A stretch of 64,000 bases of DNA from a bacterium (GTDB lineage Bacteria > Patescibacteriota > Saccharimonadia > CAILAD01 > GCA-016700035). The position numbers were made by a program, and so were the translations under genes. The notes beneath the pieces were generated by a model. That model saw nothing but the letters and a program-made list of their open reading frames with translations. It had not been told where the DNA came from and ran no database searches. Location: assembly GCA_016700035.1 (NCBI GenBank), contig CP064998.1, positions 199,021 through 263,020 of the forward strand. Reading direction: 5' to 3'. Positions 16,223-44,724 of this stretch are shown one piece after another; within the stretch, counting starts at the first letter, position 1; each line of letters opens with the position of its first letter.

Positions 16223-16346
16223 AACTTTAAATTTTGTATTTAAACTTTTTTATGTTCGTATAACAGGATTAAAAGCTACGCATTTGGTTGTATCGTTCTA
16301 ATGTGTAGCTAAACTTTAACGATATAATATACTTTTGTATGTTGTG

Positions 16347-17866
<1,520 letters not shown>

Positions 17867-18421: not shown

Positions 18422-18715
18422 ACAGACAGTATAGCAAAAAAATAACTTCTATGATTTGCTGATGGGTCGTCCAGATTAGATTGATATGAATATTTGGGCC
18501 ACGCTATAGATAACTTGCCTTAGCGGGTCATGATAGGATAGTTGGTTGAGTGCTAGTACTGTTGGAAGAGATATCGAAAGGGCAATTTGTGTCAGTACTG
18601 CGCTTCCTAGTCTTGGCGTGTTTGATAGGCTGTAGTTGTATATATCGTGAGCATATAGCCTTAGCTAGTATTATCACGATCATTGCAATCTACAGAGATT
18701 AAAGCAAAGAAGTTA

Positions 18716-20167
18716 TTAGAACCCATTGTTATTTGGTTTAATATGGCATAGCCATATTTTTAGGCCAATACCGACCAATCCAAGTAGAAACAGAACATAA
18801 GTCAACGATAAGTATAGTTTAATGTTGTCTCCGGTATCGGCGAGTTGGCCATGAGTGGTGTTTGACACTGGAGGGTCTATAGGGTCTGGGATTGGAGGTA
18901 TATACTCATAAGCGCCAGAATCATAACCTGAGCCTTGTGGCCTGGCTATACCCCGCTGGTCAGTAGTGAGACTATTAGTCACGCCGGCATCAATAGCTGC
19001 AGAGTTTTCTAATAATGCGATCGTTTGGATAGTGCCACCATTGTCTTGTAGTGGACCCAAGCTAGATGATAATCCAACAATCTCAGCCTGATCGGTTGGG
19101 TGATTAAGCTCTGATGTAGCTGTTGCGTCAGTTATATTCCCACCCAAAGAGGCTGAGGTGGCTGATTCAGTGCCTCCAGCGTTAGGCTCAAACTCCGCAT
19201 TAAAAACATCAAGGTTTACACCTAAAATATTTTGGAAATCAATTGATGATGCTGCCGAAGCACCAGGGGTTGCTAAGCTTGCCGACAAGATACCGCTCCC
19301 GGTTACGCCGACTTGAGGGTTGCCAATTATAGTTATATTGCGAGCTGTGACATTTACTTCTCCATCACCACCAGACAAAGAATCGGCAATTGCAGAAATA
19401 TAGCTAATACTATATCCATTTGTAGCTGTCACGTCAGTTATAGTTATATTTTCGGCTAGACCACTAGTATGACCCCCTGCTCGAGAATAGAAGCAAACAA
19501 GTAAAACGGAGTCATTTTTTGTCCCTTCTACATTAGTGATAGTTGTACGCCTAACTATATTGCCAGATGTAGTTGCCCCATTGCTAGTTATAAAAATTGC
19601 ACTACTCTCAAAGATAATATCATGGATATAGATATCTTCTATAGTACTCGAAATACCATTCATCCACGCAGAGACTTCAATCATGGAGCTATCTACAGAT
19701 TGGGCTACATCAGCATAAACCTCGACGCGCCTAATTGTCATGGAGTAATTAAAGGTATTTATTGCGCCGTAGTCATTAATTAATATACTATTCGGATTTT
19801 TAATTGTGACGTCTTGTACGGTAGCTTGTTGAGGGGTAATATTTGGGTTATTGAAACTTAAGCCACCGTTATTACCTTGGGCATCGATGATAGTTTGTCC
19901 CATACCGGCACCCTGTACGGTTAGAGGTACGGTAATTACGTTTGTATTTGCATAGTTGAAAGTACCAGCCGATAAGCTGATAGTATCGTTACTTCCGTAA
20001 GTGCCAGAAGCTGTACACCCACCTTGATTGCTAGCCGAGTTCATGGATAAAATTGCATTATCTAGAGTGCATCCTGGACTCACGTTAATTGTCGCAGCCG
20101 AAGCTTTATTTGGCGCAAAAATAAATGTTATTGATAAGGCTACAATCAATAACAACAAATACTTCAT
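18716..20167 (-). CDS. Secreted beta-helix-like surface protein with LAxTG-type sortase sorting signal
   Basis: Signal peptide MKYLLLLIVALSITFIFAPNKASA (the ORF may start at 20227). Asn/Gly/Thr-rich repeats suggest a parallel beta-helix. C-terminal LADTG, hydrophobic helix and KIWLCHIK tail. Confidence 0.55.
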   Translation of the reverse strand: MKYLLLLIVALSITFIFAPNKASAATINVSPGCTLDNAILSMNSASNQGGCTASGTYGSNDTISLSAGTFNYANTNVITVPLTVQGAGMGQTIIDAQGNNGGLSFNNPNITPQQATVQDVTIKNPNSILINDYGAINTFNYSMTIRRVEVYADVAQSVDSSMIEVSAWMNGISSTIEDIYIHDIIFESSAIFITSNGATTSGNIVRRTTITNVEGTKNDSVLLVCFYSRAGGHTSGLAENITITDVTATNGYSISYISAIADSLSGGDGEVNVTARNITIIGNPQVGVTGSGILSASLATPGASAASSIDFQNILGVNLDVFNAEFEPNAGGTESATSASLGGNITDATATSELNHPTDQAEIVGLSSSLGPLQDNGGTIQTIALLENSAAIDAGVTNSLTTDQRGIARPQGSGYDSGAYEYIPPIPDPIDPPVSNTTHGQLADTGDNIKLYLSLTYVLFLLGLVGIGLKIWLCHIKPNNNGF

Positions 20168-20671
20168 TCTAGGTCGTATTAGAAGAATATGGATTGACAT
20201 CAATATCTTGTTTTCGGCTTTTCTCACGTTATTTATTTTAACATAAGCAAGTTATTTAGATGAAAGAAGCGTGATATATTTATGCAGCATTCTTGTTTAG
20301 CCAAGAATGCTCAAATTAGATTATTGTCGACCCTTTCGGCACTTCTTGGTCGAAAATTTAAGCGGGTTTGATGAGGCGGGGTGGTTTTATCTTTTAAGGT
20401 GAATTACAGAATAGTATATTTTATTATTTACTAATTGTGTATCTATACTCTAGTTGGAGCTTATTTTATATATAATCTTGAAATTTTTCATGGTTAGTTT
20501 TGCCGAGCTATGTACGGCATGAACAATAAAATAAGCTTCCATCATTTGGTGGAGGTTGATAGTCCAATTTAGGGTTAAAAAGTTTTTCTCTCCTTGCCAA
20601 GCTCGCCATTTCAGTGTAAAAATCCAAATCATCGCCCTTCTGGGTGATTTTTTTGTTAAAAATCTCAATCT

Positions 20672-20713
20672 TGGTGGGCTTGGCAGGACTCAGAGCCGGA
20701 CCTCGTCATTATT
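20672..20713 (-). pseudogene. Degenerate copy of the tRNA-Ile 3' half
   Basis: tggtgggcttggcaggactc...gacctcgtcattat matches the 3' portion of the adjacent tRNA-Ile with an internal substitution block. Confidence 0.45.
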
Positions 20714-20752
20714 TGGCTGAGGCCAAGTACAGTAATGTTTTTTCTCTCAGCT

Positions 20753-20830
20753 GGTGGGCTTGGCAGGACTCGAACCTGCGACCTCGTCATTATCAGTGAC
20801 GCGCTCTAACCAGCTGAGCTACAAGCCCAC
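20753..20830 (-). tRNA. tRNA-Ile (anticodon GAT), CCA encoded
   Basis: Reverse complement folds as a cloverleaf. Anticodon loop cuGAUaa. Close match to bacterial tRNA-Ile(GAU). Confidence 0.9.
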
Positions 20831-20863
20831 AGCTGAGAGAAAAAGTTGTATAGATGCCGTGAA

Positions 20864-20895
20864 CAGTGACGCGCTCTAACTAACTTAGGCTACAA
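20864..20895 (-). pseudogene. Degenerate copy of the tRNA-Ile 5' half
   Basis: cagtgacgcgctctaac is identical to the tRNA-Ile D/anticodon-arm region, then diverges. Confidence 0.4.
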
Positions 20896-21243
20896 TTCCG
20901 GGATATAATTGTGGTGGAACATATACCTTGTAAAATTTCGACTTATGCTCGGAACGAGTCCCTGCGCGCAAGTCATGTTAGCAGATCCGAACCGAAAGGT
21001 TTAAGCCTTCATCGGTTCTGTCTGGCGGAGCATGTACTTCGTGAAACTTCGGTCTATGCTCGAAGCAAGCTTCTGCGCGTAGACCTTGTTTGCGGATAGC
21101 GGCTTACGCCTTCTCCTTGTGGTGCTCGACAAGATATACAGTAAGCTGATATCTTGGTCTGCGCTCCTCATGCGCCGAACCTTCGGCTCAATGCAGATTT
21201 TAGTCCACCACTCTGTAAGTATATATTGCATATACCCACAGAG

Positions 21244-21320
21244 TGGTGGAGCATATCGGATTCGAACCGATGACCCCCTGCTTGCAAAGCAGGTGCTCTA
21301 GCCAGCTGAGCTAATGCCCC
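21244..21320 (-). tRNA. tRNA-Ala (anticodon TGC), CCA encoded, G3:U70 present
   Basis: Reverse complement ggggcattagctcagctggctagagcacctgctttgcaagcagg...tgctccacca. Anticodon UGC. Confidence 0.9.
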
Positions 21321-21619: not shown

Positions 21620-22090
21620 ATGCATAATAATCAGCCAATACAGCCTGGATCTTTGGTGCTGCCAAAGTCTGCTTCGAACACAAACGAAGGCGGACAAGGT
21701 GGTGCTTTGCCTGTAATTACGCCGACACCTCAACTAGCAGTTATTGCATCTAATACGCCAACTGTGGATGGTCAGTCGATGGTTAAATTGAGGGGGCAAG
21801 CTGGTTTGAGTATGGATAGCACAAGTGCAGAGACTGGTGGCTTAGATTTTAGTGACACAAAGGTAGTAGATCCAGCTATACTGGCTCAGCCAGCACCAGC
21901 ACCAGCACCAGCACCAGCACCAGCACCAGCACCAGCACCAGCACCAGCACCAGCACCAGCACCAGCACCAGCACCAGCACCAGCACCAGCACCAGCACCA
22001 GCACCAGCACCAGCACCAGCACCAGCACCAGCACCAGCACCAGCACCAGCACCAGCACCAGCACCAGCACCAGCACCAGCATATAGTTAA
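21620..22090 (+). CDS. Pro-Ala dipeptide-repeat protein (hypothetical)
   Basis: ORF ending in (PA)32 encoded by a hexanucleotide microsatellite. No TM or signal. May be the 5' part of a gene split from 22146-22733. Confidence 0.45.
   Translation: MHNNQPIQPGSLVLPKSASNTNEGGQGGALPVITPTPQLAVIASNTPTVDGQSMVKLRGQAGLSMDSTSAETGGLDFSDTKVVDPAILAQPAPAPAPAPAPAPAPAPAPAPAPAPAPAPAPAPAPAPAPAPAPAPAPAPAPAPAPAPAPAPAPAYS
21890..22081 (+). repeat. (CCAGCA)32 perfect tandem hexanucleotide repeat
   Basis: Seen directly. 192 nt with no interruptions. Confidence 0.95.
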
Positions 22091-22145
22091 TCAGCCCAAC
22101 TTACAACCTACTCAAGCTGAATATCAGTATTACCAAGCACCACCA

Positions 22146-22733
22146 ATGGCTCCGTCGTCTACACCTATTTCACAGTCTCAAGTTAGTGTCGCATCACCAC
22201 TCTTAGTAGCTTCAGCACCTCCGTTACCGCTCGCACCGGTCCCACAGCCAGCTTTGCAGGTGGTACCACCATCGCCAATCAATTCACCACCAATGGCCAT
22301 ACCACCTACTTCACCGGTAGCCCCATCAGTACCGATACCTCAACCAAATGCTCCTGCTCCAACGACAGCTCCAAACCCTCAGCCAACCCAACCAGTCTCA
22401 TCGGCGCCGACTAGCCCAGCCCAGCCCAATTCACAAAAAGATTGGCTAGTATATGCAGCTCTCGCAATAGGTATTATCTCGATTTTGGCACAAGTTTTTG
22501 TTTCGGGTACTCCAGGATTTGCCATAATTTTGGTCGGCATTTCGTTGGTCGGTATTTTCTTGGGCTTTAAATCACTGAAGGGTGGCAAGAGGAGTATTGC
22601 AGTTGCGGTTGTGATAATTAGTGCGCTTGCTCTGGTGTCGGCGGTGGTGCAAGCTGGGATTGCTATAAATATTGCCCGAAAGTGTCAAACCGATCCAAGT
22701 TATGCCGCGCAAAGCGCACAGTGTCAGCGCTAA
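22146..22733 (+). CDS. Pro-rich membrane protein (hypothetical)
   Basis: Pro/Ala/Ser-rich N-terminal half followed by 3 predicted TM helices and a Cys-containing tail. Confidence 0.5.
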   Translation: MAPSSTPISQSQVSVASPLLVASAPPLPLAPVPQPALQVVPPSPINSPPMAIPPTSPVAPSVPIPQPNAPAPTTAPNPQPTQPVSSAPTSPAQPNSQKDWLVYAALAIGIISILAQVFVSGTPGFAIILVGISLVGIFLGFKSLKGGKRSIAVAVVIISALALVSAVVQAGIAINIARKCQTDPSYAAQSAQCQR

Positions 22734-25660: not shown

Positions 25661-27463
25661 ATGCCAACTAAAAAAAAGAGCACAAAAATGAAAGTAAAAC
25701 CTAAGTCTACATCTAAAGTAGCCAAAAGTAGAAGCGCCCAAGGTGTTTTGTCGTCTAATAAGTTTAATGTTGTAATCGCCGGTATTGCCCTATTGCTAAT
25801 TGCTGTGGTGGGTATTTTTGTTTATTTTGCATCGAGGGCCGGGACCTCAACTTATCAATATAATGCAACTACTGGAGTACATACTGGGCGCTTATTTTCT
25901 GACGATAGTCCTCTTAACCAGACTATTCCTGGTGATGTTCGCTATGCGGCTGATGGCCAGACTCGTATTCAAACTGCAGGAGTTCCCGCAGCATTCTCCT
26001 TGCTGACTTGGTCGATACCGATTTTTCAAGCCGATGCCACTACGCCTAAGGCTAATATTTGGTGTTATCAGACGGATATTCAAGCTCCATGGGATACTTG
26101 TCATGGGATAAATACTAGTCCTCAGCCAGTGCCACAGGGTATGTTTGCTCAGAAGGGTGGCGATGGGCATGTGACAGTTATTGATACTTCGACTAGAAAA
26201 ATATACAGCTACTGGATATGGAAGGATTGCACTCTGCAGTTTAGTCTCAATAATGCTAAATGGTGCCCAGCTACTGGCAATATGGCGTCAATTGACGGTA
26301 ATGGCGTAGGAGGTGGTACAAATGTAGCTGGGTTAGCTGGCGGAATAATCCGAACACACGAGATTGAACGAGGGAATATTGACCACGCACTGACTTTCTC
26401 TACTAGTACGACTTGTAAGCGAGACCCTATCTATCCAGCCCTCTATAGTGATGGCACAAACGCCAATCAGGCAACATGTATGCCGATTGGCGCTCGGTTT
26501 CAGCTTGATCCCAGTATTAATGTAGATACTCTGCCAAATATTACCCCAATGGAAAAAACTATTGCTAAAGCACTGCAAAAATATGGAGCCTATGTAGACG
26601 ATACCGGTGGAATATTTGGCTTTGTCATTGAGCTTGATCGAACAGGTAGGAAAGTTTATCAGAAAGCTGGTGCTCCAGACCATGATTATTTCCCTATGAA
26701 AGCCATACCTTGGGATAAGTTTAAGATGCTTGAACCACAGTGGAATAAAGATGGCTCCAAAGCTTATGCCTGGACAGGGCCACAAATTACCACCCCCTCC
26801 CCAACTCCACCCACCACCACCGTTACCCCTAGCCCCACACCAACTCCTGGTAATAAAGCACCAGTAGGTCCAGCTAGTCTCTCTGCTTCAGTCATCTCTA
26901 GCACACAAATCAATCTGACTTGGCCAGTAGCCACCGACGATAGTACAGGGACCCTCAACTACACCGTGACTCGTAATGACAAACAAATCTACTCTGGCCC
27001 TAAGCTATCCTTCTCCGACACCGGCCTAACTCCAGCTACTAAATATAACTATAAAGTTACAGCTAAGGATGTAGGTGGTCTTGTATCCACTGGTGCAACT
27101 ACCTCTGCTACCACCCAAGCATCCCCCACCACTCCACCCCCGCCAACCACCGACACCACCAAACCTTCAGTACCCGGTAATGTTAAAAGTAAGATAGAGT
27201 TCGATGGTCTAAAGTTTGCTTATTACACTAATCTAACTTGGACTGCATCTTACGATAACGTAGGTGTAACAAGCTATGAAGTAAGACGTAATAACACAAG
27301 TCTTGGCACTACTACCACTACTAACTTCAAAGACTACAATCTCCAACCCAATATCCTCTACAGCTACGACATCTATGCTAAAGATGCAGCTACTAACTCA
27401 TCTCTACCAGCTAACACCAAGCTCACTGGTCGTTGCTTCATCATCTGGTGTTGGGGGGAGTAG
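25661..27463 (+). CDS. Signal-anchored surface protein A: unknown ~330-aa domain plus two FN3-like modules and CFIIWCWGE tail
   Basis: Lys-rich N-terminus with a TM helix. Cys-containing central domain of unknown function. Thr/Pro linkers. FN3-like modules identical to those of the gene at 33936. Confidence 0.65.
   Translation: MPTKKKSTKMKVKPKSTSKVAKSRSAQGVLSSNKFNVVIAGIALLLIAVVGIFVYFASRAGTSTYQYNATTGVHTGRLFSDDSPLNQTIPGDVRYAADGQTRIQTAGVPAAFSLLTWSIPIFQADATTPKANIWCYQTDIQAPWDTCHGINTSPQPVPQGMFAQKGGDGHVTVIDTSTRKIYSYWIWKDCTLQFSLNNAKWCPATGNMASIDGNGVGGGTNVAGLAGGIIRTHEIERGNIDHALTFSTSTTCKRDPIYPALYSDGTNANQATCMPIGARFQLDPSINVDTLPNITPMEKTIAKALQKYGAYVDDTGGIFGFVIELDRTGRKVYQKAGAPDHDYFPMKAIPWDKFKMLEPQWNKDGSKAYAWTGPQITTPSPTPPTTTVTPSPTPTPGNKAPVGPASLSASVISSTQINLTWPVATDDSTGTLNYTVTRNDKQIYSGPKLSFSDTGLTPATKYNYKVTAKDVGGLVSTGATTSATTQASPTTPPPPTTDTTKPSVPGNVKSKIEFDGLKFAYYTNLTWTASYDNVGVTSYEVRRNNTSLGTTTTTNFKDYNLQPNILYSYDIYAKDAATNSSLPANTKLTGRCFIIWCWGE
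26790..27463 (+). repeat. Copy 1 of ~675-bp FN3-cassette repeat (apparently identical to 35011-35685)
   Basis: No differences found on visual alignment except one extra A in the other copy. Confidence 0.85.
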
Positions 27464-27513
27464 TAACCGCTAGGTTTACCTTTAACACCCTAAATTCTCG
27501 ATAGTAAAAGGTA

Positions 27514-27543
27514 TTGACCCATAACGCATGGGCATGATACGCT
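27514..27543 (+). promoter_or_regulatory. Candidate 23S promoter (-35 TTGACC)
   Basis: TTGACC about 280 nt upstream of the 23S 5' end. The -10 is poor. A related TTGACC-N18-TAAAAT lies downstream of the paralogous copy at ~35737. Confidence 0.25.
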
Positions 27544-27798
27544 ATTGAGGCACTAAAGCGAGGACAGCCACACGTGAGTAGACAACAAAACCTAGGAGAA
27601 ACCACCGGTTAATCAGAGTTTGTTGGAATTTCACGCGTGGTTGTCTCCGGTAGATACCACGCTTTTTTGTATCGAACGTTCACAACTTCATACTTACGAG
27701 AAAAAAGGGTAACAAATATTGCTTTCTTTCTTAGGGATGATTAGACAAAGCTTGTAAGAGGTGTGTCAATCACTCTCTTATAAAAAAGAGAAGAAAAA

Positions 27799-30985
<3,187 letters not shown>

Positions 30986-31174
30986 TTCGTGGTTTACTTG
31001 ATCATTTTTTGTGATTAGGTAAACCGATTTTTGACAAGATGAGTGCTTGGCACGCTTTTTACAAGCTAAAAATCTCTAAGAAATCTTTAAAGAAAGCAAA
31101 GTGCCTTTAATCGTAAGTATGAATGACTTCCATTGTGAGCGTCGGTCTTTCGGGCTTTAGAGCTTGAGAGACCG

Positions 31175-31283
31175 GTGCTTATGGCGGAGGGGCCACACCT
31201 GTTCCCATACCGAACACAGCAGTTAAGCCCTCCTGCGGCGATGATACTGGTAACCCCGGGAAAGTAGCGCAGTGCCGGATTGG
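31175..31283 (+). rRNA. rrf: 5S ribosomal RNA
   Basis: GCTTATGGCGGAGGGGCCACACCTGTTCCCATACCGAACACAG...GGGAAAGTAGCGCAGTGCC. Confidence 0.85.
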
Positions 31284-31290
31284 AATTATT

Positions 31291-31324
31291 AAAAGCCGCC
31301 TATTTTTATAAATGGGTGGCTTTT
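31291..31324 (+). terminator. Putative rrn terminator hairpin followed by a T-run
   Basis: GCCGCC...GGTGGC stem with one G-U, then TTTT. Confidence 0.35.
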
Positions 31325-31384
31325 GTTGACACATACAATCATTAGGGTTTATGCTTAATATATACTTAATAAAGAGATGTTCTC

Positions 31385-33856
31385 ATGTCTGTTCAAAAAA
31401 AGAAAATAACACCAAAAAATAAACCTAAAACCAGAGTCAAGAAAACCGCTTCCAGCAATTCAATAAAGTATACTTATAAATTTAGCAATCCCATAGTCCT
31501 TGGAGTAGTTGCGATATTGATTGTTGTGTCGGCAGTATATCTGTATATTACCTATGCTGGATCGGCACGTTATGAGGCTTTGCAGCCGATTAAGAAAAGT
31601 ACAACAGCTGGTGCAGTCTTGCCGATTATCTACAATGCAACATCCCTAACTGGTACGGTGCGTTATGCTTCTCCATCCGGTTCTAATACTTCAGCCTGCA
31701 TAGCTAGTGACCCATGCACGTTGGCACGTGCGGTGAGCCAGGTAAGTACTGCTAATAGTACGATTATCCTAGCTGGCGGTACGTATCGCAATCAAGCCAA
31801 TATTACTATTAGTGGTAGTGGGCGCAATGGTTTGAAACTTATAGCTGCATCCGGCCAAATACCAGAAATTCGTGGCTCAGTGGAGGTGAATGGTGGCTGG
31901 AATACAGAGGCTGGCTACAAATATATTTCATATACCCCTCGAGCGATTGAGGAAGGTATGGGGGTAGCATTTGATGATGAGAAAAATATGATGAACCTCA
32001 ATAGTAGTGAAGGTCGATATGCCGACCAGGTTTGGATAGGCAATAAGGCACTTAAGCAGATTCTAGATAAGTCGGCTTTGAAGGATGGTCAATTCTATGT
32101 TGATAGGGCTAATCGTCGACTCTACCTTACTGCTAATGATGCATCAAAATCATCAATTGAAACCTCACGACCCGGTGATGGAACGACTAATCCACGTGAT
32201 CGTTTATTCTCAATTTCTTCCACAGGCGTCACCCTAGAAGGGATTCGTATGAATCGCTATTCTGCCAATGGCGATGATTATGGTGTAGTTTTAGTTAATG
32301 ATGGTGCGCATAATTTTACTATGAAGAACTCAGAACTATCCGACGCACCGTATGAAGGTGTGCATGTTGGTCAGGTGGATAATCCAACTTTTAAGAATGT
32401 TACTATACACGATGTAGCTTGGACATCAATAGGGGTTAATCAATCGGATAAGTTGCTATTAGATCAAGTTAAAATAACCAATACAGATCCATTTGATGAG
32501 TTTTCTAGCTCACCGGTTAGTGGTGCATTGAAAACGAGTCGAACACGTGATTCTAAAGTTATTCAGAGTTATATTGGTGGCAATAAGTCGCATGGCTTAT
32601 GGTTTGATCAAAGCAATATTAATGTGGTAGTTGATAAGAACTTTATGAAGGATAATACTGGCGCAAGTGTTTTCTTTGAGATTTCAGATGGACTTACAAT
32701 GACAAATAATTTTGTAGCCACCACAAATGGTCAGCCCATCAAGATGGCTGGGTCATCTGGTTTGCGTTTGGTTAATAATACATTGGTTGGAGGTCATGAC
32801 CCAGTTGGAGTATATATGGATAACCGTTCGACACCGGGTTGTGCATCTAATATTAACTTATGTAAATCATCTTCCTACGCCAGCGATCGTCAAGGTCGGT
32901 TTGCACCATATATTGGCTCTACGATGGACTGGATGCCTAGAATTGATGTGATGGTGAATAATATTATTGCGTATCCAAGTAGTCTGTCTAGCATGTGCGG
33001 CAAAACAGCCACGGTTGGAGTTTGTATTACTACTAGCTGGGGGTCCGGTGCCCAACTTGCTACTACAACGCTTGATGCTATTATTCATAAAGCGGATACC
33101 ACACGTAATATTCCTCAGACTATCATTAGCGGTAATGTGTATGCTAATGGTACTTCTCGAATTATTCGAGCTGGTTCGCAGGATTATACGAGTGCGTCTA
33201 CATGGAGCTCAGCACTTGCTGGTCCTCCGGTTAATATTACTGGATTAGATGCAAATGCTAAGGTGGGCAATAGCTGGGTAAATACCGATGGTACGGGAAC
33301 CGATAGCTTGATCAATGCTAGCGCTCAGGCCTATAAGATACCAGTATTTACTGGCTCAAATGCTATTATTAACACCTACATACCAGCCGGTACGCAGCAG
33401 TATGGAGTACTGAGTAGTGCGGTGAATCCATCTACAACTGTATCGCCTACAACTACTCCTCCATCATCTACTCCAACACCGACAACCACTACTACGGTGA
33501 AGCCATCACCTACCACGCCGGTAACTCCACCCCCGCCAACCACCGACACCACCAAACCTTCAGTACCCGGTAATGTTAAAAGTAAGATAGAGTTCGATGG
33601 TCTAAAGTTTGCTTATTACACTAATCTAACTTGGACTGCATCTTACGATAACGTAGGTGTAACAAGCTATGAAGTAAGACGCAATAACACAAGTATTGGT
33701 ACTTCTACTACCACTAACTTCAAAGACTACAATCTCCAACCCAATATTCTCTATAGCTATGACATCTACGCTAAAGATGCAGCTACCAACTCATCTCTAC
33801 CAGCTAACACCAAGCTCACTGGTCGTTGCTTCATCATCTGGTGTTGGGGGGAGTAG
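31385..33856 (+). CDS. Signal-anchored surface protein B: right-handed beta-helix (pectate-lyase-like) domain plus FN3 module and CFIIWCWGE tail
   Basis: Lys-rich N-terminus with a TM helix. Repeated N/G/T-rich beta-helix turns (NVTIHDVAWTSIGVNQSDKLLLDQVKITNT). C-terminal ~110 aa about 97% identical at nt level to the other copies. Confidence 0.6.
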   Translation: MSVQKKKITPKNKPKTRVKKTASSNSIKYTYKFSNPIVLGVVAILIVVSAVYLYITYAGSARYEALQPIKKSTTAGAVLPIIYNATSLTGTVRYASPSGSNTSACIASDPCTLARAVSQVSTANSTIILAGGTYRNQANITISGSGRNGLKLIAASGQIPEIRGSVEVNGGWNTEAGYKYISYTPRAIEEGMGVAFDDEKNMMNLNSSEGRYADQVWIGNKALKQILDKSALKDGQFYVDRANRRLYLTANDASKSSIETSRPGDGTTNPRDRLFSISSTGVTLEGIRMNRYSANGDDYGVVLVNDGAHNFTMKNSELSDAPYEGVHVGQVDNPTFKNVTIHDVAWTSIGVNQSDKLLLDQVKITNTDPFDEFSSSPVSGALKTSRTRDSKVIQSYIGGNKSHGLWFDQSNINVVVDKNFMKDNTGASVFFEISDGLTMTNNFVATTNGQPIKMAGSSGLRLVNNTLVGGHDPVGVYMDNRSTPGCASNINLCKSSSYASDRQGRFAPYIGSTMDWMPRIDVMVNNIIAYPSSLSSMCGKTATVGVCITTSWGSGAQLATTTLDAIIHKADTTRNIPQTIISGNVYANGTSRIIRAGSQDYTSASTWSSALAGPPVNITGLDANAKVGNSWVNTDGTGTDSLINASAQAYKIPVFTGSNAIINTYIPAGTQQYGVLSSAVNPSTTVSPTTTPPSSTPTPTTTTTVKPSPTTPVTPPPPTTDTTKPSVPGNVKSKIEFDGLKFAYYTNLTWTASYDNVGVTSYEVRRNNTSIGTSTTTNFKDYNLQPNILYSYDIYAKDAATNSSLPANTKLTGRCFIIWCWGE
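33524..33856 (+). repeat. Copy 2 (diverged, ~10 substitutions) of the terminal FN3 cassette
   Basis: Aligns to 27131-27463 with mostly synonymous changes. Confidence 0.8.
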
Positions 33857-33935
33857 AGGATTTGACGAATCTTAATAAAACCCTTAAGCTTAAACTAACT
33901 CACAAGTATTAATACAAAAAGGATCATTAAATACC

Positions 33936-35685
33936 ATGTCGGCTACTAAGAAACGAAATCAATCTAAGTCTAGAGGATCTAGCGCTAAGACCGCTAAGAC
34001 TTCGAGTAGAGTATCTACAGTAAAGAATATTAATCTAGGTATTTTGGCAATTGTGGCGGGTGCGGTAATTTTAATTGGTGGCCTTTATGCACTGCTGGCT
34101 TGGGCGGCAACACCTGGTGTTGGTAGTTATCCGGCAATTGCTACTATTCCGCGTCTTGCCCCTTACACTAGTTTTTGGTGGCAGTTGGAAAACGCTCCAA
34201 AAGTTGATGCACTAGTTACCGAAGCTAACCCTAAAAAACATTATGATTTTGACTACGAAGATGTAACTAGCGCACAAATCGCAACCATGAAGTCTCAGAA
34301 TGCATTGGTAACTTGCTACTTTGAAGTTGGGACAGCGGCTCAGTGGCGCCCAGATTATAATAAATTTCCAGCCTCAGCAGTTTCAGCAACTGACCCACAG
34401 AACTGGGGTGATGAGCGCTGGATAGATATTATGAATCCAACAGTACGAAGTATTATGGCGGGGCGGATGGATGTTTCAAAAGAGAAAGGCTGTCAAGGGA
34501 TAGAGCCAGATTGGCTAGACAACTATACCTACAGCCAAGCTGAGTATGATGCTTCTGGAAAAGTGAAAGTACCGACTAAAGCACAACAATTAGATTATAT
34601 GAAGTTTTTGGCTGATGAAGCTCATAAGCGAGGCATGATGATTGCCTTAAAGAATGTACCGGAGCTAGCTCGTGAGAAATTTGCTGACGGACGAGTGGTA
34701 GCGGACGTGTATGACTGGGCATTAATTGAAGAGTGTCTCGTTTCTTATAAGGATACTTGCCCAAACCTGAAGGCCTTTATTGAGCGTGGTAAGAATGTGG
34801 CGGTTGCAGAATACAATGATCAGGTAGCACAGGCTAAATTTACTGATACTTTCTGCCCTCAGTTCAATACCTGGAATTTTGATGGATATCTGTTTGATCG
34901 CAAGAATGGTGGTAGTCCAACCTTGACCGGAAAATTTCGTGTACCATGTCGTACTGGAGAGGGGCAGCCCATAGGACCCACCCCAACGGTAACTGTATTC
35001 CCGGGCACCTCCACCCCCTCCCCAACTCCACCCACCACCACCGTTACCCCTAGCCCCACACCAACTCCTGGTAATAAAGCACCAGTAGGTCCAGCTAGTC
35101 TCTCTGCTTCAGTCATCTCTAGCACACAAATCAATCTGACTTGGCCAGTAGCCACCGACGATAGTACAGGGACCCTCAACTACACCGTGACTCGTAATGA
35201 CAAACAAATCTACTCTGGCCCTAAGCTATCCTTCTCCGACACCGGCCTAACTCCAGCTACTAAATATAACTATAAAGTTACAGCTAAGGATGTAGGTGGT
35301 CTTGTATCCACTGGTGCAACTACCTCTGCTACCACCCAAGCATCCCCCACCACTCCACCCCCGCCAACCACCGACACCACCAAACCTTCAGTACCCGGTA
35401 ATGTTAAAAAGTAAGATAGAGTTCGATGGTCTAAAGTTTGCTTATTACACTAATCTAACTTGGACTGCATCTTACGATAACGTAGGTGTAACAAGCTATG
35501 AAGTAAGACGTAATAACACAAGTCTTGGCACTACTACCACTACTAACTTCAAAGACTACAATCTCCAACCCAATATCCTCTACAGCTACGACATCTATGC
35601 TAAAGATGCAGCTACTAACTCATCTCTACCAGCTAACACCAAGCTCACTGGTCGTTGCTTCATCATCTGGTGTTGGGGGGAGTAG
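33936..35685 (+). pseudogene. Signal-anchored surface protein C with GH114-like TIM-barrel domain, disrupted by +1 frameshift in an A-run
   Basis: N-terminal K-rich anchor. FWWQL...GCQGIEPDWLDNY resembles the glycoside hydrolase family 114 fold. A5 at 35406-35410 against A4 in the two paralogs shifts the frame. The ORF continues as 35296-35685. Confidence 0.6.
35011..35685 (+). repeat. Copy 3 of the ~675-bp FN3-cassette repeat
   Basis: Identical to 26790-27463 apart from one extra A. Confidence 0.85.
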
Positions 35686-35892
35686 AGCAGTACTTAGACT
35701 TATCTTGATACTCTGAACTCTTGATAGGAAAAAGTATTGACCTATAGTGGTTTATTGTACTTAAAATATTTGAGCATTTTACCCGAGGCACGGTTAAGGG
35801 TTACTGGCCGGCTTCAGTTTTGTGGATAAAATTGATTTTTTTTTTGCACCATGAGAAGATAAACACAAGGGTAATTAAAAGGAATACTAAAA

Positions 35893-36726
35893 ATGTCAGA
35901 GGTAGGTCGATGGACACCGGAGGATAGTCAGGCACTAAATAGTGAAAGCTACGCCGCAAGAAAACCGGCTCAGGATAAATGGGATGAGTTGAATAAGTCA
36001 GCTGTGAGTGAGGGGGTGGCTACTGAGCTGCCATATGTTGTAGATGGAGGTAGGGAAATATCTTATACGGAAGCCTTAAATGAAATTCAACGTCGACAGG
36101 ACACTGTAAATGAATACACCGAACTAGAACAGGCTAGCTTAGCTCGTGGTGAAGGGGAGTCATCCATATTGCCACACCTAAAATACAAGCTTAAAGCCAT
36201 TCAAGAGCCTCTGGAGCGAGCACGCAGTTGGGCGTCACGTCTTCAGGAGGCGCGAGCTCGTGGAGTGGAAATTCCGGAAAAATTTTCTACCGCCGAGCAG
36301 ATTATGTATCATGAATCTAAATTGGAAGAGTATAAGAAGCAGAGAGACAATGTTGCGCTTTGTATACTGGAATTTCGTGGAGCCGACGAAAATCAAGACG
36401 CGAGAGCCGTACATAGCGCCCTCGCGCATTTGCCGGAAGTGAATGAGATGGGTGGCATTGACTGGGAAGGACTGAAGCACTGGGTAACCCATCTTCAGAG
36501 GCATGGTAGGCCGGAAGGAGATCAAGCACAAGCAGTACTTGATAAGGCTTATCCAGGTGGTGAGCTCTACAATGCCCGCATTGAGTACTATCGTGATTTG
36601 GTAGAAATTAATGAGATTTTGCAGCCGGTGCGTGAGAGGATAATCGCACGCTATGAAGAGGAACTACGTGACTTTATTGAAAAAACTAGTGATCTGCCAG
36701 ATGGAGCTCAGGAAATTACTACATAG
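35893..36726 (+). CDS. Hypothetical acidic protein
   Basis: 277-aa ORF with RBS-like AAAAGGAATA upstream. No recognised motifs. Confidence 0.4.
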   Translation: MSEVGRWTPEDSQALNSESYAARKPAQDKWDELNKSAVSEGVATELPYVVDGGREISYTEALNEIQRRQDTVNEYTELEQASLARGEGESSILPHLKYKLKAIQEPLERARSWASRLQEARARGVEIPEKFSTAEQIMYHESKLEEYKKQRDNVALCILEFRGADENQDARAVHSALAHLPEVNEMGGIDWEGLKHWVTHLQRHGRPEGDQAQAVLDKAYPGGELYNARIEYYRDLVEINEILQPVRERIIARYEEELRDFIEKTSDLPDGAQEITT

Positions 36727-40505: not shown

Positions 40506-40757
40506 ATGGGGCGACCCAAAGGCAACACATTACCCGAGCGAACGTGTCGGATGTGTCGAGGGCGTTTCCCAAAGAATCAATTAGAGCGCTGGGTGTTGCG
40601 TGGGTCGGAGCTGGTGCTTGACTTAAAACAGATAGAGTCAGGGCGAGGATGGTATAGTTGTAAGAAGCCAGCTTGTTCGAGAAAAATGCACGAAGTTGGT
40701 GCTCGGGTGGCTTTATCACGCCGCCACCGCAAACCCAAACAGGAGAAAACTACATGA
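40506..40757 (+). CDS. ylxR: YlxR/RnpM-family RNA-binding protein (DUF448)
   Basis: RTCRMCRGR...GRGWYSC motif. Located directly upstream of infB. Confidence 0.75.
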   Translation: MGRPKGNTLPERTCRMCRGRFPKNQLERWVLRGSELVLDLKQIESGRGWYSCKKPACSRKMHEVGARVALSRRHRKPKQEKTT

Positions 40758-42523
40758 CAGAAAATCCAGTTGAATTACGCAAGATAAGTATTCCTAAAAC
40801 TATTGCTGTACATGATTTAGCTTCTCGTCTGGAAGTTCCTGCTACAAAAGTAATTGGTGAGCTGATGCGTAATGGGGTGATGGCTACTATTAATGAGTCA
40901 ATTGATTTTGACACAGCAAGCATTATATCGGAGGAGTTTGATGTAGCAGTTGAGCTGGAGACTACAGTTGACGAGCGTCCAGTCCGTAGTGATGAGCCTG
41001 TCGGCAAGAAGAAGTCTCGTCCGCCGGTGGTGGCAGTTATGGGGCATGTGGATCATGGTAAAACCAGCGTGCTTGATGCAATTCGCGATACTGAAACTGC
41101 TACACGGGAAGCTGGCGGTATTACTCAGCATATTGGCGCCTATCAAGTACACCGCAAAGATCGAACACTGACTTTTTTAGATACGCCTGGGCATGAGGCA
41201 TTTTCAGCCATTCGAGCTCATGGCGTGCGGGCCACCGATGTGGTGGTGATTGTAATTGCTGCCGATGATGGCGTAAAGCCACAGACTCAGGAAGCTGTCA
41301 GGTTGGCTCAAGAGGCTGGGGTGGGTATTGTGGTTGCGATTAATAAAGTTGATAAGGCCGATGCTGATGTTGCACGAATTAAGCAACAGCTATCCGAAAT
41401 ACAGTTAATCCCTGATGATTGGGGTGGTGATACACCGTGTGTTGAGGTGTCGGCGAAGGCTAAAACAGGTTTAGAGGCATTACTTGATATGATTTTACTA
41501 GTCAGTGATATTCATAAGCCTGAGGCTACATATGATGGGCCAGCCCGCGGAGTTATTATTGAAAGTCATATGGAAACTGGTCGTGGCGCTACGGTAACTC
41601 TCCTGATTGAGCAGGGTACACTTAAACCCGGAGACTATGTTGTGGCTGGTAGTACGTATGGTAAGGTGCGGTCGCTTGATAATTATGCAGGTAAGCCGAT
41701 AAAACAGGCAACTCCATCTACTCCGGTTGTGGTGACTGGCTTCAAGGCTGTGCCTGCCTTTGGTGACTGGTTTGAGGTTGTTGAAAACGAGAAAGTGGCT
41801 AAGGATTGGCAGATTAAGCAGGCGCGTAAAAGTAGTATAAAAAGTGTTGCTAAGCCAAAATCGGTCAATGCTTCAGATTTGGCTCGGGCTGTGAGTCGTG
41901 GTGCTGTAAAAGAGTTAACTATTATTATAAAAGCCGATGCCCAAGGTTCGTTGGAGTCAATTACTCAGGCTCTGCATTTGATTGGTAATGAAGAAGTGCA
42001 GGTGAAGATTGCCGCCAGTGGCGTAGGGGCGATTACCGAAGGTGATATTCATACTGCTACTGCCACAGGGGCAATTATATTAGGTTTTCATACGACGATT
42101 TCGGGTGCTGTTAATCAACTAGCTAAGCGATCGGGTGTTACTTTTCAGCTTTATCAGGTTATCTATGACCTGCTGGATGATGTGCGGGAGTGGCTAACGG
42201 CGTTACTGGAGCCTGAAATAATAGAGACAGAAGTTGGCCGACTTAAGCTGTTGGCTGTATTTAAAACTACCAAAGACCATGTTATTTGTGGTGGTAAGGT
42301 TATTCAGGGTCAGGCTGAGGCTGGCGCATCAATTCAAATCATGCGAGAGGGTGAGCTATTGGGCACTACTAAGCTAGTTGAGCTTCAGAAGCAGATGCAG
42401 CCAGCGCAGACCGTTCTTGCCGATGAAGAGTGCGGGATGTCTGTTGAACGAGTTGAAATAGCGCCTGAAGTAGGGGATGAGTTTGTGTTTATTCGTCGCG
42501 AAGTACGCGAGCGGAGTCTTTAA
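40754..42523 (+). CDS. infB: Translation initiation factor IF-2 (short form)
   Basis: G1 AVMGHVDHGKTS, DTPGHEAF, NKVD. Start at the ATG after AGGAG, with a 4-nt overlap with ylxR. Confidence 0.9.
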   Translation: MTENPVELRKISIPKTIAVHDLASRLEVPATKVIGELMRNGVMATINESIDFDTASIISEEFDVAVELETTVDERPVRSDEPVGKKKSRPPVVAVMGHVDHGKTSVLDAIRDTETATREAGGITQHIGAYQVHRKDRTLTFLDTPGHEAFSAIRAHGVRATDVVVIVIAADDGVKPQTQEAVRLAQEAGVGIVVAINKVDKADADVARIKQQLSEIQLIPDDWGGDTPCVEVSAKAKTGLEALLDMILLVSDIHKPEATYDGPARGVIIESHMETGRGATVTLLIEQGTLKPGDYVVAGSTYGKVRSLDNYAGKPIKQATPSTPVVVTGFKAVPAFGDWFEVVENEKVAKDWQIKQARKSSIKSVAKPKSVNASDLARAVSRGAVKELTIIIKADAQGSLESITQALHLIGNEEVQVKIAASGVGAITEGDIHTATATGAIILGFHTTISGAVNQLAKRSGVTFQLYQVIYDLLDDVREWLTALLEPEIIETEVGRLKLLAVFKTTKDHVICGGKVIQGQAEAGASIQIMREGELLGTTKLVELQKQMQPAQTVLADEECGMSVERVEIAPEVGDEFVFIRREVRERSL

Positions 42524-42525
42524 GG

Positions 42526-42839
42526 TGTCGAGACGCGCCGATCAAGTTGGGCGCGAGCTGCATCGACACATGGCACTGACTCTAACAGAGGTATTGCATC
42601 AAGGGGCACGAGTCACTATTACTCGCGTGAAAGCCACAGACGACCTTAAAACTTTACGAGTTTGGGTGCAGGGCTGGAAAAATCTTGATGATCGCGCAAA
42701 AGCAACGATAGAGCATCGCCTTCGAGGTGCCATTCGTTCTAGCTCACAAACCAAATTTACACCTCGGTTAATTCTTTTAAATGATGATAGTGTTGATTAC
42801 GCTGAATATATTGATAAGCTCCTAAAAGAAGATAAATAG
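42526..42839 (+). CDS. rbfA: Ribosome-binding factor A
   Basis: RRADQVGRELHRHMA...TITRVKATDDLKTLRVWV. A GTG start is assumed. An in-frame ATG at 42477 would overlap infB. Confidence 0.7.
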
Positions 42840-42876: not shown

Positions 42877-43236
42877 ATGAAGCGAGTATTGTTGGTTGAG
42901 GATAATGATTTCATCCGTAAGATGTATTTGATGAAGCTAGGCAAGTCTGAATCTATTGAGGTGCTAGAAGCGGCTGATGGGCCAGCAGCACTAGAAGTCT
43001 ATCAGGCACAGAAGCCAGATCTTATTCTTCTAGATATTATGATGCCAAAAATGAGCGGTATAGAAGTGCTGGAGGAATTACATAAGAGTGGCTCTAAGGT
43101 GCCAGTAATTATTCTCTCAAATGTGATGAGCTCTGAAACTAGAGAAGTTGCCACAAAGTATGGCGTGGTAGACTACATCATTAAAAGTGATCTCACTCCG
43201 TCGCAGGTGCTAGAGAAGATTGAAAAATATCTTTAA
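42877..43236 (+). CDS. Stand-alone response-regulator receiver domain protein (CheY-like)
   Basis: LLVEDND...DLILLDIMMPKMSG...K receiver motifs. No output domain. Confidence 0.8.
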   Translation: MKRVLLVEDNDFIRKMYLMKLGKSESIEVLEAADGPAALEVYQAQKPDLILLDIMMPKMSGIEVLEELHKSGSKVPVIILSNVMSSETREVATKYGVVDYIIKSDLTPSQVLEKIEKYL

Positions 43237-44180
43237 GCTAAGCGAATTTCACCGACATTGCATAGGTCGCGACCAGTAACTACCCTTTTCCCTGGTAGTT
43301 GAGCCTGTAGTATTTCGATACGGCCCTCCGAGAATTGCAGTAGTAAGTGTTTATTTTGGCAATACAGCTCTATTTTGCCAGTGGAAGTGTCGTGTATTTT
43401 TACCTGATGCAAAGAGAGTGTTTGTGGTTTATTACGTAGTAATATTGGTATGCGAACTCCTGGCCAACCAGAGTAAGCACGAACCAATCTTTCTAGCTGA
43501 ACGGCAGTCATAGTTTTGGGGGAGATATCACCATCTTGTTTTTTAATAAGTTTGGAGTAGCTAGGTTTTTGGCTCAAGTCTTGTGGGGTGGGGGTGATAG
43601 TGTGACTTAAGTATGCGCGTAGGGTTGGCACGAGGAGGTTTCGACTAGCTTTTAGAAGCTTTTCCCAAAGCTCTAATTTTTGGATATTTGCTGGTACGGT
43701 AAAGCTATCTTGAGCTAAAATTGGTCCAGCATCCATTTCTGGCGTGATGAGCATAATACTGGTGCCGACGGTTGTGTCGCCGGCAAGGATGGTGCTCTCT
43801 AAGGGGGATGGTCCACGGTGCAGGGGCAGGAGCGAGGGGTGAATATTAATAATGCCGTGCGGAAAAGTGTCCAGGGTTTCTAACGGTAGAATTTTACCAT
43901 AGGCAAATAGTACGCCAACATCAGGCTGGAGTTGTCGAATCTGTTTGGTGATTTCTGTAAGTTTTGTAGGAGTGAAGAAGGGTATTTTAGCTGCTTGAGC
44001 GAGCTGGGCCACTGGAGTGGTGCGCTGATGGGTGTGTGCATGCATTTTGCTTGATTGCGATACTACGCCAACTACGGTGATGTCTTTTTTTTGCAGTAAG
44101 TCTTGCAAGATAAGGGCGCTCGATTGACCGGAGCCAAAGAATATTATTCGAGTTTTAGTGTTGGTGGTGGTTTTGAGCAT
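43233..44180 (-). CDS. fmt: Methionyl-tRNA formyltransferase
   Basis: RIIFFGSG N-terminus. HPSLLPLHRGPSP catalytic motif. Downstream of def in the same operon. The ORF may start at 44204. Confidence 0.85.
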   Translation of the reverse strand: MLKTTTNTKTRIIFFGSGQSSALILQDLLQKKDITVVGVVSQSSKMHAHTHQRTTPVAQLAQAAKIPFFTPTKLTEITKQIRQLQPDVGVLFAYGKILPLETLDTFPHGIINIHPSLLPLHRGPSPLESTILAGDTTVGTSIMLITPEMDAGPILAQDSFTVPANIQKLELWEKLLKASRNLLVPTLRAYLSHTITPTPQDLSQKPSYSKLIKKQDGDISPKTMTAVQLERLVRAYSGWPGVRIPILLRNKPQTLSLHQVKIHDTSTGKIELYCQNKHLLLQFSEGRIEILQAQLPGKRVVTGRDLCNVGEIRLA

Positions 44181-44724
44181 CAATAATTTCCTGCGGAATT
44201 TCATCTACGCTAATCAGCTGTCCGTCGTCATCGAGCTTTAATAGGGTAGAAGCATCTTTTATGATATCTATAAAGAGCTTGCCGTGCATGTGATCTATCT
44301 CGTGTTGAAAGACTCGAGCTGGGAAACCCTCCAGAGTCAGGCGTACCTCTTCACCTTCAAGTGTTAGGGCCTTTACTTTTATTTTATTAGCCCGAGGAAT
44401 CTTTGCATAGTAGCCAGGCACACTGAGACAGCCTTCAACATCGACGACAAAATCTCGGCTTTTTTGGACAATTTCGGGGTTAATAAAAGTTAGAAAAGTC
44501 TGGTCTTTGCCGTCTTCAAAGTTATTACGTACAACTGTTAATTTTATAGTTTCACCAATTTGAATGGCTGCTAGGGCGGCCCCGTATTCGCTGTCATGAT
44601 CCCAATCTAGTGTTGTATCAATCATGTCCTGAGCTAGTTTCTCAACCTTTGGAGTGACGCGCGTGATACGGAGTGATTTTTGGCGCAATCGCTGGTCGGG
44701 AATCGTGACAAGTTTTCTAATCAT
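44155..44724 (-). CDS. def: Peptide deformylase
   Basis: Motifs GAALAAIQIG, EGCLSVPG, HEIDHMHG. Confidence 0.9.
   Translation of the reverse strand: MIRKLVTIPDQRLRQKSLRITRVTPKVEKLAQDMIDTTLDWDHDSEYGAALAAIQIGETIKLTVVRNNFEDGKDQTFLTFINPEIVQKSRDFVVDVEGCLSVPGYYAKIPRANKIKVKALTLEGEEVRLTLEGFPARVFQHEIDHMHGKLFIDIIKDASTLLKLDDDGQLISVDEIPQEIIDAQNHHQH

Follow-up and report, generated by a model that had tools for sequence, protein, structure and literature searches.

A single extra adenine breaks the reading frame of a gene for a predicted GH114 surface enzyme in the window, by which we mean the whole 64,000-nucleotide stretch of contig CP064998.1 analyzed here. The base lies in a homopolymer of five A's (A5; 35406-35410, forward strand), one A more than is found in both other copies of the module that surrounds it. 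The extra A is present in the deposited sequence, and the feature it creates is probably non-biological. Our most likely reading, held with moderate confidence, is that it is a residual Nanopore consensus error that short-read polishing could not reach because the site sits within an exact 675-nt repeat. The GenBank listing of the gene as two proteins (QQS27153.1 and QQS27154.1) is thus probably wrong.

A broken reading frame in a shared C-terminal module

Three genes of the window have in common an N-terminal basic stretch, a hydrophobic anchor and a C-terminal FN3 module that ends in LTGRCFIIWCWGE. Copy 1 of this module (26790-27463, forward strand) closes a gene of 600 aa (25661-27463) that is made up of an N-terminal domain and two FN3 modules; the N-terminal domain had no match in Pfam, NCBIfam or the PDB. 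Copy 2 (33524-33856, forward strand) consists of the last FN3 and tail alone and ends the gene of an 823-aa right-handed beta-helix protein with one FN3 (31385-33856). Copy 3 (35011-35685, forward strand), with a linker, FN3-1, a second linker, FN3-2 and the tail, belongs to the GH114 gene. The genes with copies 1 and 2, the 492-aa and 94-aa fragments of the third and the gene that follows are GenBank entries QQS27151-QQS27155 (IPM44_ tags), all on one contig. A sequence-only reading of this DNA had described the three genes as GH114 paralogs. That description fails, as the PF03537 GH114 domain is present only in the gene with copy 3, and ‘paralog’ is imprecise because the C-terminal module is all that the three share.

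Copies 1 and 3 are otherwise identical, as the sequence-only reading had stated: the identity reaches 395 nt on the upstream side of the run and 279 nt on the downstream side, and run length, A5 in copy 3 versus A4 in copy 1 (27185-27188), is the sole difference within 675 nt. The window has no other long dispersed repeat that is exact. Copy 2 has only the last ~333 nt in common with the others, at 96% identity over 300 nt. Its run is also A4 and lies at 33578-33581, 30 nt from the place first given for it (33548-33551); the position given for the copy 1 run was correct. The A5 form, GTTAAAAAGTAAG, occurs once in the window, at 35403-35415, and the A4 form, GTTAAAAGTAAG, twice, at 27182-27193 and 33575-33586, with a chance expectation for both of 0 in 100 shuffles. 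Of the 31-mers that span the run in its two states (...GGTAATGTTAAAAAGTAAGATAG... versus ...GGTAATGTTAAAAGTAAGATAG...), the A5 one, for example CCCGGTAATGTTAAAAAGTAAGATAGAGTTC, is found in copy 3 alone.

The effect on the gene is as first described. The open reading frame that begins at 33936 terminates at 35414 (forward strand) as ...PSVPGNVKK-stop, yielding a 492-aa product (QQS27153.1) whose TAA stop is itself created by the frame shift. The last FN3 module and its ...LTGRCFIIWCWGE end persist in the +1 frame (35401-35685, forward strand), where the longest mechanical ORF extends from 35296 to 35685. NCBI annotates this remnant as a 94-aa hypothetical protein (QQS27154.1, IPM44_01105), which fits an in-frame ATG at 35401; the 94-aa remnant has neither a signal sequence nor an evident ribosome-binding site. 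Once one A is deleted, the whole gene (33936-35685, forward strand) encodes an uninterrupted 582-aa protein.

An extra adenine in an unpolishable repeat

CP064998 is the MAG Kalu_18-Q3-R12-55_MAXAC.052_cln, circular and 916,044 bp long, which is classified as Patescibacteria; Saccharimonadia; o__UBA4664 and was covered 16.85x by Illumina and 15.57x by Nanopore reads (Singleton et al. 2021, Supplementary Data 3, PMC8012365). The long-read part of the pipeline consisted of CANU on Nanopore reads, followed by Racon and two medaka rounds with Nanopore reads; the short-read part was a single Racon round with minimap2-mapped Illumina reads (PMC8012365). This Saccharibacteria genome originates from wastewater.

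Errors that persist in long-read assemblies are for the most part homopolymer indels that put ORFs out of frame, and when such an error affects one instance of a repeat, short reads go to the error-free instance, leaving the error uncovered and uncorrected (Wick & Holt 2022, Polypolish, PMC8812927). Of the polishers tested there, Racon ranked near the bottom when run on short reads, and it added errors in all 100 test genomes (PMC8812927). The present case resembles these repeat-protected errors both in how the genome was made, from a Nanopore-based assembly with Racon as the short-read polisher, and in its form: one base added to a homopolymer throws an ORF out of frame, in a single member of an exact repeat whose other members are free of the error and would draw the short reads. 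Every ingredient is in place: shallow coverage by both read types, a single Racon round, a homopolymer change of +/-1 and repeat twins with A4. The A5 site is separated from the repeat boundary by 395 nt upstream and 279 nt downstream, deeper than short reads would reach, and copies 1 and 2 read A4. On this reading the Nanopore consensus would have had A5 in copy 3; the Illumina reads, with the true A4, would then have found a better match in copies 1 and 2, which had no error, and the copy 3 site, thus deprived of correcting coverage, would have kept its draft base.

The placement of the change also points to an error. The ORF map of the window is dense, and no other homopolymer frameshift is visible in its ~52 kb of coding sequence. 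Indels in coding sequence relative to the locus of the closest relative (L001, JGI 3300056626, contig Ga0558126_10097) are multiples of three or alignment noise. The repeat copies account for ~3% of the coding sequence, so a random mutation would be unlikely to land there, whereas an error that escaped polishing would be expected to. Other candidate disruptions in the window were considered and rejected: two pairs of overlapping frames are distinct genes, IF-2 and RbfA at 40673-42523 and 42477-42839, formyltransferase and deformylase at 43233-44204 and 44155-44724, and the ORF-poor stretch at 61.5-64 kb holds a single open frame that continues past the edge of the window and by eye resembles an isoleucyl-tRNA synthetase.

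Some observations argue against an artefact. A run of four A's is short for a Nanopore length error: typical Nanopore errors fall in long runs and are dominated by deletions, while here a short run has gained a base (4 to 5). The longer G6 and C5 runs of the same module are identical to copy 1. Furthermore, the gene at 21620-22733 is disrupted by a change that does not involve a homopolymer, and therefore real gene disruption may occur in this genome. A plausible artefact of another kind is a mixed-strain consensus, in which the window type GTTAAAAGT and the L001 type GTAAAAAGT, aligned as an insertion/deletion pair, could give GTTAAAAAGT.

The observations against an artefact leave some room for a genuine mutation, which we consider possible though doubtful: a real +1 insertion of very recent date, either fixed or common in the population sampled at Kalundborg in 2018, that truncates the GH114 enzyme after the first FN3. 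A real A5 would amount to a nascent pseudogene or a truncation allele of the ordinary kind, with no switch. The deposited sequence did receive an Illumina polishing round, spontaneous slippage from A4 to A5 is plausible, and full identity to copy 1 on both sides, with no decay, would also fit a mutation that followed the last gene-conversion event. Loss might be tolerable because the locus is accessory and varies between strains.

Disruption of other genes has a bearing on this possibility. The gene at 21620-22733 also looks broken, lying in two frames (156 and 195 aa) in the window versus a single 408-aa ORF in L001 (3957-5183). Compared with L001, ~113 nt are missing at 22085, between short ATATA direct repeats, a gap that may reflect either a true deletion or faulty assembly of a tandem repeat. 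It directly follows a perfect (CCAGCA)n tract of ~33 units at 21884-22084, which encodes a Pro-Ala repeat. The beta-helix gene of L001 (15673-18134) carries an independent frameshift: a C6 run with one C too many, ~50 nt ahead of the site homologous to the A-run, truncates the product at 723 aa, and removal of one C gives an 819-aa protein with FN3 and tail. This, however, is likewise a homopolymer change in the repeated module and may be a long-read error, as the L001 contig spans near-identical repeats and an rRNA operon and so may come from long reads. Against a genuine mutation there is also the coincidence it demands, that the sole homopolymer frameshift in ~52 kb of coding sequence fell in the only unpolishable exact repeat. 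In addition, the A5 allele is in no other dataset examined, and a short-read contig of the same strain (L023) reads A4.

That contig (SRR35975710) spans the stop codon, extends 298 nt into the module, and is identical to the window in the covered part of the module and in 1.4 kb of unique flank, run length excepted. It supports A4 in copy 3 without deciding the matter, because k-mer assembly merges the k-mers of the copy 1/copy 3 repeat: the A4 k-mers possibly come from copy 1 or 2, with the A5 branch dropped. The gene downstream of copy 3 (35893-36726) is identical in nine short-read Logan contigs from other runs, L023 among them.

All orthologues found are intact. The closest relative, P0001 at locus L001, is a complete 584-aa protein with 98% identity to the 582-aa product. 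Its 90% cluster includes the full-length members P0078 (584 aa, 11 contigs), P0080 (582 aa, 18 contigs), P0083 and P0081, and the copy in the window is the only truncated member. An orthologue on a GenBank metagenome contig (L030) is also intact, as are more than 30 orthologue contigs overall, and at 14 of 14 Saccharibacteria loci, taken from GTDB species representatives, the last FN3 shares its frame with a long ORF that lies upstream. Look-ups of the exact 492-aa, 94-aa and 129-aa forms found no A5-state product on record elsewhere; the same look-ups for the 600-aa product and for P0005 gave no match. Pattern scans for the site in its A4, A5 or GTA form had no hit in the metagenome and genome contig collections, from which contigs of this species, L001 included, are evidently absent. 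Selection on the gene appears undisturbed in these comparisons: the catalytic part has a pN/pS of 0.05 relative to the L001 orthologue, and across the shared module 27 differences are synonymous and none is non-synonymous, which indicates no decay in the part downstream of the shift. In the P0081 variant (597 aa; 5 short contigs), the usual stop is read through in some contigs (…CWGEQGSIQTYLDTLNS), which implies a changed stop codon.

The chief lesson is a caution for Nanopore-first MAGs, namely that a lone homopolymer frameshift in an exact repeat should be presumed an artefact until its reads have been inspected. If the change is real, an accessory surface glycosidase was truncated only very recently, which would be of local interest only.

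Improbable alternatives: phase variation and recoding at the A-run

The sequence-only reading had offered three explanations. An error and a very recent inactivation both still stand, the error being the likelier. The third, slipped-strand phase variation, we now set aside as very improbable. It would make the site an evolved contingency locus, at which slipped-strand mispairing in the A-run switches the enzyme between full-length and truncated forms and so creates heterogeneity in a surface enzyme across the population. Contingency loci of this type in Neisseria, Haemophilus, Campylobacter and Helicobacter do offer a likeness, as they too have an intragenic homopolymer in a surface-protein gene where a change in length shifts the frame. 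Unlike in those loci, the tract here is much shorter and is not conserved, and the shift removes the C-terminal module only.

Known phase-variable homopolymers are ~7-8 nt or more, and a tract of 5 nt is far below that. It is also commonplace: the window has 104 A5 runs, besides 36 of A6, 11 of A7 and 1 of A8. Across 14 homologous module copies the run varies from 3 to 5 A's, within GTT/GTA/GCT/ACA AAA AGT/GGC codons. In L001 all three copies have an in-frame A5 (GTA AAA AGT) with no frame break at the site. The intact state of more than 30 orthologue contigs argues against a switch as well, and an OFF state would lose the last module only, keeping the enzyme. Judged by tract length and by retention in orthologues and paralogues, the A-run lacks the defining features of a contingency locus, and nothing points to a hypermutable tract that is being maintained.

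What favors phase variation is the contrast between A5 in the window and A4 in L023 in what is apparently the same gene, a contrast that assembly error, or k-mers common to the repeat copies, could also produce. A second homopolymer frameshift, that of L001, occurs in the same linker in another strain. Finally, a T9/T10 tract 430 nt downstream varies among short-read assemblies of the strain, so tract slippage does occur in this population. This tract, T10 in the window (35836-35845), is T9 in five same-strain short-read contigs (L022, L023, L025, L027 and L029) and T10 in two (L024 and L026). It lies in the leader of the 277-aa gene at 35893-36726, downstream of a promoter-like site (35721-35748). 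The length of the T10 tract is truly polymorphic, and as a candidate for slipped-strand change the tract is stronger than the A5 run.

A broader version of the idea, which we think just as improbable, takes both the A5 frameshift of the GH114 gene in the window and the C6 frameshift of the L001 beta-helix gene as real. Short homopolymers in the ~60-nt linker directly ahead of the last FN3 module would then form a recurrent, reversible switch in these ultra-small epibionts, repaired by gene conversion from sister modules. Were this so, the terminal FN3 and Cys-rich end would be lost from individual surface enzymes, which might, for example, pass from attached to released.

Programmed recoding, by +1 ribosomal frameshifting at AAA-AAG-UAA or by transcriptional slippage, would still allow the full-length protein to be made from the A5 sequence; we regard this as extremely unlikely. 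The zero-frame TAA that comes right after the run loosely resembles the shift-at-a-stop of prfB, where a +1 shift is likewise needed and a stop codon likewise follows the site. Unlike prfB, the site is not conserved, and it lacks both a slippery codon of the CUU-U type and a Shine-Dalgarno stimulator upstream. On GUU AAA AAG UAA G, the Lys-tRNA paired with AAG in the P site would need to shift onto AGU, a poor match. No Shine-Dalgarno-like element was seen upstream of the site, and the local RNA fold around it is no better than that of shuffled sequence (z = -0.12). The frameshift is not conserved in orthologues or in paralogous modules; copies 1 and 2 have the same flanking sequence and an unbroken frame. 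After a -1 slip on A-AAA-AAG, a stop would follow two codons on. As for transcriptional slippage, known efficient cases involve ~9 or more A's, and five are too few.

The GH114 enzyme and its strain-variable surroundings

With a residual consensus error as the favored reading, the real gene would encode an intact 582-aa protein that is N-terminally anchored and extracellular. It would comprise a GH114 domain (endo-alpha-1,4-polygalactosaminidase-like), two FN3 modules and a conserved Cys-rich C-terminal end, as in its orthologues. By the Pfam criterion the copy 3 gene is a GH114 member, with a PF03537 match of 172.1 bits against a cutoff of 27 (residues 80-322, E 1.5e-50). The nearest solved relative of its catalytic domain is Ega3 (PDB 6OJ1, E 8e-25), a GH114 endo-alpha-1,4-galactosaminidase of Aspergillus fumigatus (PDB 6OJ1/6OJB) with which it is alike in this domain. 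The aligned motifs are GIEPDWLD in copy 3 versus GVDPDNVD in Ega3, IALKN versus IGLKN, and IEEC versus NEQC. The DPD-like and E-C motifs thus align and presumably belong to the active site. Unlike Ega3, the enzyme is bacterial (Saccharimonadia); besides its N-terminal anchor it carries Pro/Thr linkers, a pair of FN3 modules and a C-terminal end specific to its lineage.

The 492-aa product of the deposited sequence consists of an N-terminal basic stretch, a hydrophobic anchor, GH114 (residues 80-322), a Pro/Thr linker and the first FN3. If A5 is real, FN3-2 and the conserved Cys-rich end are gone. Since anchor, catalytic domain and FN3-1 are retained, this product may still be active. A real A5 would therefore be a truncation allele of an accessory enzyme, which does not necessarily imply inactivation.

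The C-terminal end is widespread in the lineage. A last FN3 that ends in L[TV]G[RK]CF[LI]IWCW[GAS]E at the extreme C-terminus is found on many different Saccharibacteria extracellular enzymes (P0002-P0020, P0026, P0004), among them GH114, beta-helix, GH16 and other proteins, and CFWFFCGVQ and CFWIFCALQ occur as variants. In the window this end lies at 27380-27463, 33773-33856 and 35602-35685. No model in Pfam or NCBIfam covers it, and the NCBIfam search matched only the FN3 regions of CbhB, far under the cutoff. It may serve in attachment, sorting or disulfide formation.

We find the surroundings of more interest than the frameshift: a GH114 enzyme, a beta-helix protein and an unmatched domain carry a common FN3-plus-tail module and vary between strains around the 23S rRNA gene. 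The order in the window (25661-35747) is copy 1 gene, 23S, 5S, beta-helix and GH114, and in L001 (8110-18134) it is copy 1 gene, GH114, 23S, 5S and beta-helix. In L020 (10001-17548) the copy 1 gene is followed by a 615-aa Big_7 protein and 23S, the GH114 and beta-helix genes being absent there. The breakpoints between strains fall at the shared module. The locus around the 23S and 5S rRNA genes thus behaves like a cassette set, in which different catalytic domains have a concertedly evolving C-terminal module in common. The beta-helix gene of the window is 73% identical to that of L001, with flanks of 94-98%.

The rRNA genes themselves are unlinked, the 16S lying ~10 kb upstream of the 23S-5S pair with protein genes between them, and tRNA-Ile and tRNA-Ala are on the opposite strand; these rRNA and tRNA features lie in 16344-17864, 20752-21320 and 27794-31280. 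Between the 16S region and tRNA-Ile, a segment of ~2.3 kb (18439-20730) is absent from L001; within it lies a 503-aa ORF on the reverse strand (18716-20227), which has no Pfam match. The 23S match spans 3194 nt versus a model of 2925 nt, which suggests insertions, and 29712-29840 is the stretch most divergent from L001.
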